Both the position numbers and the translations under genes were made by a program. The notes under the pieces were generated by a model. It searched no databases. It had not been told where the DNA came from and saw only the letters and a list, made by a program, of their open reading frames with translations. A stretch of DNA of 15,268 bases, from the NCBI GenBank assembly GCA_011364905.1, contig RDNZ01000055.1, positions 1 through 15,268 of the forward strand, given 5' to 3'. This DNA is from Candidatus Thorarchaeota archaeon. Its GTDB lineage: Archaea > Asgardarchaeota > Thorarchaeia > Thorarchaeales > Thorarchaeaceae. Below, one piece after another: positions 12,405 through 14,602 of the stretch (position 1 is its first letter; each line of letters begins with the position of its first letter).

Positions 12405-12476
12405 CGGAATCAGTGGAAATAGAGGTGAGTTGTACCACAGAAAGAAAATATAGAAATCAACACGGAGACGCAAGCG

Positions 12477-12617
12477 ATGACCAAGGAAAACCGACCCGCC
12501 TCAACCCTCGCGAAAAATGCAGAAGTCCTCCATACCCTCTATGGCCTTTTGGACAGCGACCGTGAACCTACCGACCAAGACGCGCAGAGCCTTCGCTACC
12601 TCTACGCGAGTTCCTGA
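12477..12617 (+). CDS. Small hypothetical protein, 46 aa (MTKENRPASTLAKNAEVLHTLYGLLDSDREPTDQDAQSLRYLYASS)
   Basis: ATG with GGAGA 8 nt upstream, an upstream TATA-like box and a perfect hairpin just after the stop. The sequence has an amphipathic helix-loop-helix pattern. It is below the ORF-track cutoff. Confidence 0.55.
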   Translation: MTKENRPASTLAKNAEVLHTLYGLLDSDREPTDQDAQSLRYLYASS

Positions 12618-12629
12618 CATTATTACGAT

Positions 12630-12722
12630 CCTCATTTTCCAATGAGGTCAATTCGCTGTCTCCGTGCACCTCCCGGCATCAGAGACACAGTGGGGGCGGA
12701 CTCCCCTAGGTCTGTCCCCCAC
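12630..12722 (+). other. Three consecutive stem-loops (structured RNA or ssDNA element)
   Basis: CCTCATT-ttcc-AATGAGG (12630-12647). TGTCTC...GAGACA with inner GTGC/GCAT (12657-12687). GTGGGGG-CGGAC...GTCTG-t-CCCCCAC (12690-12722). Confidence 0.6.
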
Positions 12723-12745
12723 ACCATCTTCATGAGTTGATCAAG

Positions 12746-12862
12746 ATGGCAACTACGGAAAAAACAAAACTGGCACGATCAAAGGGCACATCCACCATTC
12801 TCAGAAGGTACCGTCTCGAGGCGGATAGGACTCTTCGTCGGCGGCTCAAGAATCGAAAGTGA
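12746..12862 (+). CDS. Small very basic peptide, 38 aa (MATTEKTKLARSKGTSTILRRYRLEADRTLRRRLKNRK), or remnant of a gene 3' end
   Basis: ATG preceded by GAGTTGA. Its last 15 codons and the stop are conserved in frame at 14187-14234, mostly through synonymous changes. Confidence 0.35.
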   Translation: MATTEKTKLARSKGTSTILRRYRLEADRTLRRRLKNRK

Positions 12863-12922
12863 TCATCCCGGATTTTTTTGCACATGCAGAATTATACCAG
12901 CAAAGTTGGAACACGTGTTCTA
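12814..12922 (+). repeat. Bipartite direct repeat, copy R1
   Basis: Ungapped match to 14186-14294 (offset 1372). Block A is 36/40 identical, the 52-nt spacer 26/52, and block B (TTGGAACACGTGTTCTA) 17/17. Confidence 0.9.
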
Positions 12923-12930
12923 ATTCATCA

Positions 12931-12982
12931 CTAGATTTAAGGACAGCAAATACTGGATATTCCTACATTCACAGACAGGTGA
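12931..12982 (+). promoter_or_regulatory. Putative TATA box (TTTAAG 12936-12941) and Shine-Dalgarno (AGGTGA 12977-12982) of the membrane-protein gene
   Basis: Canonical archaeal SD 5 nt before ATG 12988. The TATA-like box is ~15 nt downstream of the GAACACGTGTTC palindrome. Confidence 0.55.
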
Positions 12983-12987
12983 TTCGA

Positions 12988-13662
12988 ATGACTGAGAACA
13001 TTGGACCCAAATTGAAAGTCGTATCAGTATTCGTCTTCCTTGGGTTCCTTATGACCTTGGGACTGACTGCGACAACCCTGCTCAATCCTGGAGGAGGTAA
13101 CCTCTATGAGATCCGACCAATCGCGAATGTGATTGCTGACCTTGTTGCTGCAACTCCAATGGACATCAACATCAAGCTAGCGAGTCTGGTGTTTGACAAC
13201 TTCTTCATGATTGGCTACCTCAGCATCTTCTATGGACTTTACCTGCTGACAAAGGGAAAGGAGGATCTATTTGCAAAGGTGGCATTTGCCCTTGGCAGTC
13301 TGACCTTCATCTCTGACCTGATTGAGAACGCATTTCAGGTTGCACTCCTGACCGGGGTGCCCAATGGATGGGTGCCAGCTGACAGTGTCTTCTCAACATT
13401 CTGGACTGTCATGTTCGTGAAGGATATATCGAGCTACATGGCTGGCTTCACATTCATTGTGCTCCTGCTCCTGTCCCTAAGCGAACCCGTAGAATTTAGA
13501 ATGTCAAAGATGATCTTTGTCATTCTCTTGGGTCTCTATGTCGGTCTTGGAGTGATTGCAATCATCCAGCCTTCTCTCCTAGTCTTCAGGAACCTGAGCT
13601 TCATGATTGACTTACTTATTGCATCGCTTCTTTTTCGGCAGTTATCTCAAAGGATGGGATAG
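12988..13662 (+). CDS. Multi-pass (about 6 TM) integral membrane protein of unknown function, 224 aa
   Basis: Hydrophobic helices with embedded polar motifs (FDNFF..Y, SDLIEN, VKD). The start was moved from 12859 to the ATG following AGGTGA because the 5' extension is hydrophilic and overlaps repeat R1. Confidence 0.85.
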   Translation: MTENIGPKLKVVSVFVFLGFLMTLGLTATTLLNPGGGNLYEIRPIANVIADLVAATPMDINIKLASLVFDNFFMIGYLSIFYGLYLLTKGKEDLFAKVAFALGSLTFISDLIENAFQVALLTGVPNGWVPADSVFSTFWTVMFVKDISSYMAGFTFIVLLLLSLSEPVEFRMSKMIFVILLGLYVGLGVIAIIQPSLLVFRNLSFMIDLLIASLLFRQLSQRMG

Positions 13663-13664
13663 AA

Positions 13665-14096
13665 CTACTCCGAAACAAGAAACGCTTGCTTGATTCCTCC
13701 AGCACGCTGAACCTCAAACAGACACCAGAACAACACAAAATCAATCGTTGTATTTGCAATCAGTGGCAAAATTCTCCAATCTGGACCAAATGTCACGAGT
13801 AGTGATGCCCACACGAGACCTGAGAGTACCACCGCAATTAGAGCAATCACCATAGATGCATGCACACTATACTTGACCTTTTGAAGTAGAGTTCTCAAGA
13901 GTATCAACTGAAGGAACCCAACTGCATAGAGAACACCAAATGCTAGTACCCAGTGAATTGGGATGATTGAAACTATGTCACTGAATGCAAGGAGGCTCCC
14001 GATGAAGAATATTCCAGAAACTGCCTGCAGTCTAAGACTCAGTCCAAGGTATGATCGAGTAGGCGGTATTGCTGTCATCGCGTTTTTGTATCGCAT
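13665..14096 (-). CDS. 4-TM membrane protein of unknown function, ~143 aa
   Basis: Four hydrophobic segments. Its stop is 2 bp from the stop of the convergent gene. The start is likely ATG 14096 (or 14078), downstream of a TTATAT box at 14168-14163. The track's extension to 14255 runs through repeat R2. Confidence 0.75.
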   Translation of the reverse strand: MRYKNAMTAIPPTRSYLGLSLRLQAVSGIFFIGSLLAFSDIVSIIPIHWVLAFGVLYAVGFLQLILLRTLLQKVKYSVHASMVIALIAVVLSGLVWASLLVTFGPDWRILPLIANTTIDFVLFWCLFEVQRAGGIKQAFLVSE

Positions 14097-14160
14097 CAAT
14101 CCTTCTAAAGACTTGGTTTCCGAGTATTTCGAAAACCTATGAGCTATCAAGACTCGTTTG

Positions 14161-14174
14161 ACATATAACCCTAG
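14161..14174 (-). promoter_or_regulatory. Putative BRE/TATA promoter (CTAGGG-TTATAT) for the 4-TM gene
   Basis: TATA-like box ~70 nt upstream of ATG 14096, abutting the left edge of repeat R2. Confidence 0.45.
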
Positions 14175-14185
14175 ACAGTGAAGCA

Positions 14186-14294
14186 TCTCGAGGCGGATAG
14201 GACGCTTTGTCGCCGACTCAAGAATAGGAGATAGTTTTTCAGCATCTCTTTTCAATTGGAATTTTCTGCCAAGAATCTTGGAACACGTGTTCTA
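14186..14294 (+). repeat. Bipartite direct repeat, copy R2
   Basis: TCTCGAGGCGGATAGGAC-GCTTTGTCGCCGACTCAAGAAT, then 52 nt, then TTGGAACACGTGTTCTA. 79/109 identical to R1 without gaps. Confidence 0.9.
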
Positions 14295-14379
14295 GGAATT
14301 CTCTGTTCTGAGGTTGTGTTTACATTTACTAGCTGTAATGTCCTGTTTTACTGTCGCGAAATACTCTCATCAGTTATTG

Positions 14380-14419
14380 TTTCGAAAATTTATATTTTAT
14401 TGGCTTTTTTTTCGAAAAT
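14380..14419. promoter_or_regulatory. Tandem palindromic TTTCGAAA(AT) sites 30 bp apart in an AT-rich region
   Basis: TTTCGAAAAT at 14380-14389 and 14410-14419, with TTTATAT between them. A third TTTCGAAAA lies at 14127-14135. Confidence 0.45.
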
Positions 14420-14506
14420 CAGTGAAACTTATATGCAACATCATACAAGTAATATAATTACACATTTGAGCGTTACGAAAACAATCAGCGGGTCCTGGGG
14501 GGTCTC

Positions 14507-14586
14507 GACTCGTGGTGGGGACGAGTCTTGTTGACCTTGACTACTGTAGAGCAATATGTGATACTCCCTACGGATTCGAGTAGGGA
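14507..14586 (+). other. Two perfect 7-bp hairpins in the leader of the beta-propeller gene
   Basis: GACTCGT-ggtgggg-ACGAGTC (14507-14527) and TCCCTAC-ggattcga-GTAGGGA (14565-14586). The second is directly before the AAGGAGG SD. Confidence 0.55.
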
Positions 14587-14602
14587 TGAAGGAGGATAGA
14601 AT

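Follow-up and report, generated by a model that had tools for sequence, protein, structure and literature searches.

Two 109-nt direct repeats, R1 and R2, bracket a pair of membrane-protein genes in the 15,268-bp window analyzed here, an entire contig (C54) of a Candidatus Thorarchaeota assembly (3.08 Mb, 95 contigs, 81% completeness). An earlier reading of this DNA, made from its letters alone (the sequence-only reading), had raised the possibility of a mobile gene cassette. Our comparison with orthologous loci points elsewhere. Each repeat probably consists of the coding tail of a micro-gene, smORF2, followed by its 3´ region and a putative operator, with R2 a single ectopic copy of this module; the repeats are thus probably not the ends of a mobile cassette. 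smORF2 was compared in 14 species, the loci that follow it in 13 relatives, and palindromes were counted in 28 genomes of the genus; a DNA search across 24 genus genomes matched the conserved R1 locus in 20. Metagenome runs with matching DNA came from sediment, mangrove and marsh sources.

Composition of the repeats

The features in and around R1 are as follows.

12746-12862, plus strand: smORF2, a 38-amino-acid Arg/Lys-rich micro-gene (38 codons in 14 species, codon-position bias)
12814-12853, plus strand: block A of R1, coding (alignment and codon analysis)
12863-12905, plus strand: T-rich 3´ spacer of R1, with T7 at 12873-12879 (from sequence; predicted terminator zone)
12906-12922, no strand: block B of R1, the palindrome GAACACGTGTTC at 12909-12920 with its flanks (invariant in 13 relatives' loci)
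12936-12942, plus strand: predicted TATA-like box of gene 1, TTTAAGG, 15 nt past the palindrome

A repeat search recovered R1 (12814-12922) and R2 (14186-14294) as stretches of 109 nt with 72% identity and a start-to-start spacing of 1372. The gapless 109-bp repeat of the sequence-only reading was borne out in all its parts, with 36/40 identities in block A, 26/52 in the spacer and 17/17 in block B of the ungapped alignment. Identity differs between block A and the spacer (Fisher p = 4e-5). By reasoning on size, uncomputed, an identical 17-mer and a 36/40 block at one offset in 15 kb cannot be chance. R2 was also found in its context in independent assemblies of two studies (X1 and X2), and is therefore not an assembly artefact.

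Two blocks at a fixed spacing had suggested one functional site; the orthologues resolve this unit into a coding end, a 3´ region and a putative operator. Block A is coding sequence. It comprises codons 24-36 of smORF2, a gene that is preceded by a Shine-Dalgarno-like sequence and is exactly 38 codons long in 14/14 species. Pairwise differences at codon positions 1/2/3 number 954/551/1889 over the whole of smORF2 and 309/203/716 over block A alone, and synonymous codon changes in smORF2 number 1200 in frame versus 174 and 95 in the shifted frames. Identity of block A among species is only 52-80%. Its inverted ends and inner GAC-N5-GTC, to which the sequence-only reading had drawn attention, are present in R1 and R2 and fail as a functional feature, being lost in 13 other species: the inverted ends pair at 6/7 positions in R1 and R2 versus 1-4/7 in the orthologues, where GAC-N5-GTC pairs at 0-2/3. 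Since the symmetry is absent from the orthologues, we regard it as fortuitous and see no constraint on the DNA beyond coding; a reading of block A as RNA structure was ruled out on the same ground.

Block A is also rare. Allowing up to 10 mismatches, only 2 copies were found in the 3.08-Mb assembly, which accordingly holds no further units of blocks A and B. A sensitive tblastn search with smORF2 found no fragment besides R2, and an exact-pattern scan for block A in metagenome contigs gave no match. When the window was searched for tRNAs, tmRNAs and Rfam families, no tRNA turned up, nor did anything at the repeats.

The stretch that follows the smORF2 stop codon is T-rich in all species, yet poorly alignable, and in R1 it is a probable terminator zone. 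The distance from stop codon to palindrome is nearly constant at 46-49 nt, by our own count on the alignment. At its end, GAACACGTGTTC is invariant in the loci of 13 relatives, usually as TT[AG]GAACACGTGTTC[CT]AA. This palindrome occurs at 4-13 copies per genome in 28/28 genus genomes, compared with 0-1 for a reversed control. It is the commonest GAAC-N4-GTTC word of the present genome, which has 5 copies, 4/5 of them intergenic. The copies outside the window lie upstream of an HdrA-like gene (C6), in the gap between a ferritin-like pair and a small gene (C31), and within a PolX-like gene (C11). The sites of another species, G005, match these (upstream of the HdrA-like gene, after the ferritin-like pair, inside the PolX-like gene) and add further promoter regions. 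The core is 12 bp long, extending to 16-20 bp in some species. Past the smORF2 palindrome, an A/T-rich box stands at a fixed distance in many relatives, reading TTAAGG in G021, G020 and the second G013 copy. Of the two TATA-like boxes proposed between the repeats, next to each of them, that of gene 1 thus has counterparts equally far from the palindrome in several relatives; that of gene 2 was judged by eye only.

Given the over-representation of GAACACGTGTTC, its promoter position and the conservation of orthologous sites, a dimeric regulator most likely uses it as an operator. The suggestion of a dispersed regulatory repeat family accordingly survives for block B, a genus-wide promoter-associated motif, and not for block A with its two copies.

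Several further observations concern the palindrome. The 8-mer ACACGTGT has only 12 occurrences in 3.08 Mb, at least 5 of them within the full 12-bp palindrome, a rarity suggesting that the CACGTG core is seemingly avoided outside the motif. A near-palindrome, GAACAAGTGTTC at 738-749, differs from block B by one mismatch; it is intergenic, upstream of a gene for a 1373-amino-acid surface protein, and the putative regulator of block B may bind there more weakly. In several relatives, palindromes cluster, with 3-4 copies within 650 bp around a Thorarchaeota-specific gene of ~100 amino acids (L029 3084-3739, and also L030, L031, L032 and L033), a locus that, to judge by this arrangement, may be autoregulated or heavily regulated. 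The gene sits between alanine/saccharopine-dehydrogenase-like genes and an IorAB-like pair, and is absent from this assembly. Its product, a candidate regulator, matches no Pfam family; it gave a high-confidence model with a ferredoxin-like fold, for which a fold search returned only weak Cas2/CutA matches (E about 0.04).

Gram-positive bacteria have a LexA box that agrees with the pattern GAAC-N4-GTTC. We rejected a LexA/Cheo-box reading, given that the genome encodes TBP and has no LexA DNA-binding match at the Pfam cut-off. A literature search gave one hit for the LexA box (PMC11442139) and, for the palindrome, nothing about archaea. We likewise rejected an R2-like relic upstream of MetRS in relatives: the near-match there, GAACACGTATTT, is part of a MetRS leader that is distinct from R2 and itself conserved. 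This leader is ~200 nt long and has a TATA-like box, after which come long invariant blocks (L024 4880-5094, L026 3557-3760, L023 5540-5751, L020 5990-6196), and may be a cis-regulatory RNA.

The R2 copy and the genes between the repeats

The second repeat lies beyond two convergent genes, ahead of the leader of a third.

12988-13662, plus strand: gene 1, a Thorarchaeota-specific multi-pass membrane protein of 224 amino acids (hydrophobic windows, homologue search)
13665-14078, minus strand: gene 2, a fast-evolving membrane protein of 137 amino acids (hydrophobic windows)
14136-14349, plus strand: stretch of ~214 bp holding R2 (not found in the relatives examined)
14178-14234, plus strand: remnant frame of R2, GTG, 17 codons and a stop (truncated smORF2 C-terminus, 13/15 residues identical)
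14186-14225, plus strand: block A of R2 (36/40 to R1, at most 30/40 elsewhere)
14226-14277, plus strand: spacer of R2, of the genus-common type (closer to G011 than to R1)
14278-14294, no strand: block B of R2, with the second perfect palindrome at 14281-14292 (between the divergent genes 2 and 3)
14350-14602, plus strand: conserved leader upstream of gene 3 (common to G018, G021 and G002)

R2 is a mosaic of diverged alleles. Followed position by position, its pattern of similarity changes over where block A ends. The final two codons of R2 and all that follows resemble the allele type of G011, G020, G018, G008 and G010, and the R2 spacer agrees with that of G011 at 36/53 positions and with those of G020 and G008 at 32, compared with 26/52 for R1. 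The spacer of R1 itself is unlike that of any sampled species (13-27/53). Similarity of R2 to other species extends on the right to a mutated box, CTGAGG (TTAAGG in relatives), and on the left possibly to AAGCAT, while its outer flanks match those of R1 at the random level (11/30 and 10/30). A uniformly decaying neutral duplicate cannot explain this pattern, which points to recombination or gene conversion between diverged alleles, and a palindrome that is perfect amid the mosaic argues that selection or conversion has maintained it. Three histories could have produced R2: an intragenomic copy of an ancestral allele, followed by replacement of the R1 tail; a fragment from a relative, with block A subsequently converted; or a Campbell-type crossover.

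The coding part of the copy is incomplete. It lacks the 20 N-terminal codons of smORF2, which hold most of the invariant residues, and by eye no Shine-Dalgarno-like sequence precedes the remaining frame.

The borders of the ~214-bp stretch were drawn from relatives only 70-85% identical. On the left, the similarity of G042 stops at 14130, and strain contigs of run X5 diverge after 14116 and 14135; on the right, similarity to G018 resumes at 14350. The distance from the start of gene 2 to the leader is ~63 bp in G018, compared with 57 bp from 14078 to 14135 here.

Exactly two convergent membrane-protein open reading frames (ORFs) lie between the repeats, as had been noted before, both with several hydrophobic windows of at least 19 residues and neither with a Pfam family. 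Gene 1 is 72-87% identical in relatives, and its closest database relatives are P0007 at 92% and P0010 at 89%; its homologues carry Candidatus Thorarchaeota names at their sources. For gene 2, identity is 31-38% in most relatives and 79% at the amino-acid level in G042. Genes 1 and 3 show no similarity by eye, and we dropped the idea that they are paralogues, seeing no sign of gene duplication.

The enclosed genes are found in relatives without R2. Gene 1 stands right behind the palindrome in G021, G020, G004, G015 and six metagenome contigs, with one palindrome each, and no second copy was found at fourteen metagenome loci with gene 1. The order in G021 is blac, the conserved segment, palindrome, gene 1, an inserted gene pair, gene 2, leader and gene 3, with a single palindrome; in G018 it is gene 1, gene 2, ~63 bp and the leader, with no palindrome. 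Homologues of gene 2 adjoin the gene 3 leader in G021, G018 and G002, all of which lack R2, so this adjacency predates R2. In G042, which has the closest gene 2, no palindrome follows the point where similarity ends. Together, the boundary pattern and the order of gene 2 and leader in relatives indicate that genes 1 and 2 were most likely in place before R2 arose.

Past the palindrome, gene content varies by species. G011 has neither gene 1 nor gene 2 and a different downstream gene, only MetRS; G005 has a 375-amino-acid gene, and G002 a 2980-amino-acid gene. In G013, a 586-amino-acid methyltransferase-like gene and a 113-amino-acid Fe-S gene lie between two palindromes (L019 3642 and 5974), ahead of gene 1. 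The same pair is located after gene 1 in G021 and G004, showing that gene order has been rearranged around the palindrome.

Part of the gene 3 leader, 14440-14602, is strongly conserved in G018, G021 and G002 and has two clear hairpins (GACTCGT...ACGAGTC and CCCTAC...GTAGGG). It gave no Rfam match and, from its sequence, may be a structured 5´ untranslated region.

Proposed origin and competing explanations

We suggest that R1 is a run of three consecutive signals: the coding end of smORF2, termination at the T-tract, and an operator with the promoter for the next gene. The putative operator would lie ~15 nt upstream of the gene 1 TATA box, and the same palindrome stands at a handful of promoters in each genome of the genus. 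R2 would be a single ectopic copy of this module, ~120-140 bp long, between the gene 2 promoter region and the gene 3 leader; diverged alleles would have recombined or undergone gene conversion to give it, as opposed to a recent simple duplication. It has the look of a relic in which the frame is truncated, the TATA box mutated and the palindrome perfect. That the palindrome is perfect though the flanks are at the random level suggests that R2 was probably kept as an operator, the second in the divergent gene 2/gene 3 control region, where it could place gene 2, gene 3 or both under the regulator that would also act in front of gene 1. We infer from these comparisons the operator and terminator functions as well as the copying mechanism and the selection on the R2 palindrome.

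Several points weigh against this explanation. Block A is 90% identical in a copy without visible function, which we can attribute only to gene conversion or recency. Among the ~10 base changes in the 16 codons common to both frames, only 2 alter a residue, and the stop is kept; the short frame of R2 could still be used. Some 75-95 bp of the 214-bp stretch have no recognisable origin, and the boundaries of that stretch depend on relatives 70-85% identical, with contigs blind to rare excision and an assembly 81% complete. In a second species, G013, two palindromes likewise enclose a gene block, which leaves room for recombination at the palindrome. The ~100-amino-acid candidate for the cognate regulator has no Pfam family and weak fold matches. 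Finally, the lone metatranscriptome contig spans 12285-12591, which covers smORF1, a second micro-gene upstream, and not smORF2.

The best surviving alternative, which we nevertheless regard as unlikely, is that R1 and R2 are scars of the attL/attR type, left when a segment carrying its own smORF2 3´ end integrated into the 3´ end of that gene, through a site-specific recombinase or by Campbell-type homologous recombination of a circular fragment. R2 would then be the original tail, displaced to the far end, and the enclosed genes the remnant of an integrated element or cassette. R2 does correspond to a 3´ piece of the gene whose end is R1, as seen with integrative elements that target tRNA genes, and one crossover between diverged alleles gives a mosaic, with an R1-like left half, a right half from the other allele and a genus-typical spacer. 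The variable gene content past the palindrome, and the G013 pair flanked by two palindromes, would also fit. However, the adjacency of gene 2 and leader in G018, G021 and G002 predates R2, and gene 1 directly follows the palindrome, with no second copy, in G021, G020, G004, G015 and six metagenome contigs.

Signs of mobility are lacking as well. A Pfam scan of the eight ORFs in the window, which agrees with the sequence-only reading in this respect, found no recombinase, integrase or transposase domain, only Ig-like domains and a beta-lactamase fold, though a recombinase gene may lie farther off, the window being the entire contig. By eye, and without a domain scan, no recombinase was seen among the ORFs in the variable stretches of relatives, which include genes for methyltransferase-like, Fe-S and surface proteins. 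Block A is present just twice. No joint of R1 with R2, and no deletion or circle, was seen in the contigs of four runs, a check that would miss rare excision products; parts left uncovered in runs X2, X5 and X20 were not counted as evidence. The integron-like or excisable cassette sites of the sequence-only reading find no footing here: block A occurs twice, no recombinase was found, the genes exist in relatives without R2, and the empty site or 1372-bp circle did not appear. Nor do the repeats look like the ends of a non-autonomous mobile element, there being two copies whose terminal inverted repeats are not conserved. Most of what that reading had itself named as speaking against a mobile unit was thus found, namely two copies only, enclosed genes without R2 and no circle.

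It is improbable, in our view, that R2 functions as a paralogue, an Arg-rich micro-gene of 18 codons equipped with a terminator and an operator and under selection for its peptide. The base differences between the two frames are mostly synonymous or conservative, a change from CGA to AGG preserves Arg, and the stop is kept through two changes (TGA to TAG). The same pattern is, however, expected from copying a functional allele of another lineage, and R2 resembles such alleles. The frame begins with GTG without a Shine-Dalgarno-like sequence, 20 N-terminal codons are gone, and the short form is in no other genome; a profile search of 1.84 billion representative proteins gave 3 clusters, none of them short.

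We give even less credence to the view that the smORF2-tail/palindrome module is a recombination hot spot, in which the palindrome, in addition to an operator role or in place of it, would be the crossover site of an unlinked recombinase that inserts and swaps gene blocks, each left between copies of the palindrome. If this were true, an Asgard archaeon would have an integron-like system without a linked integrase, with genes 1 and 2 here, and the 586- and 113-amino-acid pair in G013, as its blocks. Hardly credible at all is a dispersed regulatory or structural repeat family in which block A, the 52 nt and block B are read as one site: spacing is equal in both copies and the stop-to-palindrome distance nearly constant (46-49 nt), but block A occurs only twice at ≤10 mismatches, varies freely at synonymous sites and does not conserve its inverted repeats, and the palindrome stands elsewhere without block A.

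The upstream locus and relation to known systems

The favoured account, a gene tail with a putative operator copied once, places R1 at the end of a longer conserved locus. In the aligned loci of the genus, a conserved segment of ~515 bp (12411-12925) ends exactly where R1 ends. Besides smORF2, it holds the following.

12411-12439, plus strand: promoter-like motif at the 5´ edge of the conserved segment (nearly invariant in 7 species)
12477-12617, plus strand: smORF1, a 46-amino-acid micro-gene (synonymous variation in alignment; family-wide)
12624-12726, plus strand: structured RNA element of three hairpins, ~103 nt (near-invariant in the genus)

The motif at 12411-12439 would correspond to a B recognition element (BRE)/TATA pair. 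smORF1 matches no Pfam family, and the RNA element no Rfam family. A covariance model of the RNA element found one copy in 24/26 genomes of the family (13/14 genera) and none in 125 genomes of the phylum that belong to other families. Across 30 sequences, pairing holds in 94.6% of cells, compared with 36-56% in slid controls, and 20/28 pairs have changes on both sides, in an alignment fitted to the model, which favours structure. In 14/16 loci from other genera of the family, an ORF for the smORF1 peptide lies directly upstream of the RNA element; smORF2 was not found at these 16 loci. The three clusters from the profile search were the only ones, and all are over-extended gene calls. One database call, P0005 (145 amino acids), starts ahead of smORF1, takes its TGA stop for W, continues over the RNA element into smORF2, and looks like a gene-calling artefact rather than a fusion protein.

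By eye only, the last hairpin of the RNA with its ACCA resembles a tRNA acceptor/T-arm minihelix, and CACCUCC in the middle loop is like the 3´ end of 16S rRNA. G020 has two matches to the RNA model on separate contigs (C45:4171-4275 and C261:247-348), the second of which could be a real copy or strain heterogeneity in the bin. Elsewhere in the window, a sub-threshold match to the C/D-box small RNA sR10 lies at 368-426, inside the ORF at 3-704 (24.6 bits against a gathering score of 45, E = 0.012).

For an Asgard archaeon, a mobile cassette of two genes bounded by novel recombination sites would have been a notable find, but it lacks support in the evidence. The locus clearly illustrates how an apparent bipartite repeat can resolve, on comparison of orthologues, into a coding tail and a putative operator. 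It also shows how a regulon may gain a site, through the copying of part of a gene tail, operator included, into a second control region. The genus-wide palindromic putative operator and the family-wide micro-gene/structured-RNA locus, for which our literature search found no published description, are the more valuable leads for gene regulation in Asgard archaea.

Among known systems, the att repeats of integrative elements, such as those that target tRNA genes in archaea, are alike in that the downstream copy is a truncated 3´ gene fragment, as R2 is, and the neighbourhood is variable. They differ in that no integrase lies between the repeats here, the repeats are mosaic and share only 72% identity, relatives carry the enclosed genes with no second copy, and neither empty site nor circle was seen. 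The attC cassettes of integrons share the short conserved blocks that flank a small gene group; here, in contrast, the window has no integron-type tyrosine recombinase and no array, block A is coding, the inverted repeats are not conserved, and each enclosed gene seems to be served by a promoter of its own. Miniature inverted-repeat transposable element (MITE)-like elements are set apart by the mere two copies in this genome, in which conserved terminal inverted repeats were not found. There is likeness to the operators of dimeric transcription factors, archaeal or bacterial, that define small regulons, with a perfect palindrome that is over-represented, mostly intergenic and promoter-proximal, and that has orthologous sites and clusters of 3-4, although, unlike the setting of the Gram-positive LexA box, the host here is an archaeon with no LexA-type domain at the Pfam cut-off. 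R2 is also akin to the gene-fragment relics that segmental duplication or ectopic gene conversion leaves behind, being a truncated, promoter-damaged copy of a gene tail, near its source and of patchwork similarity. In contrast to such relics, the putative operator embedded in R2 is perfectly preserved, which suggests that it has been co-opted as a regulatory site.

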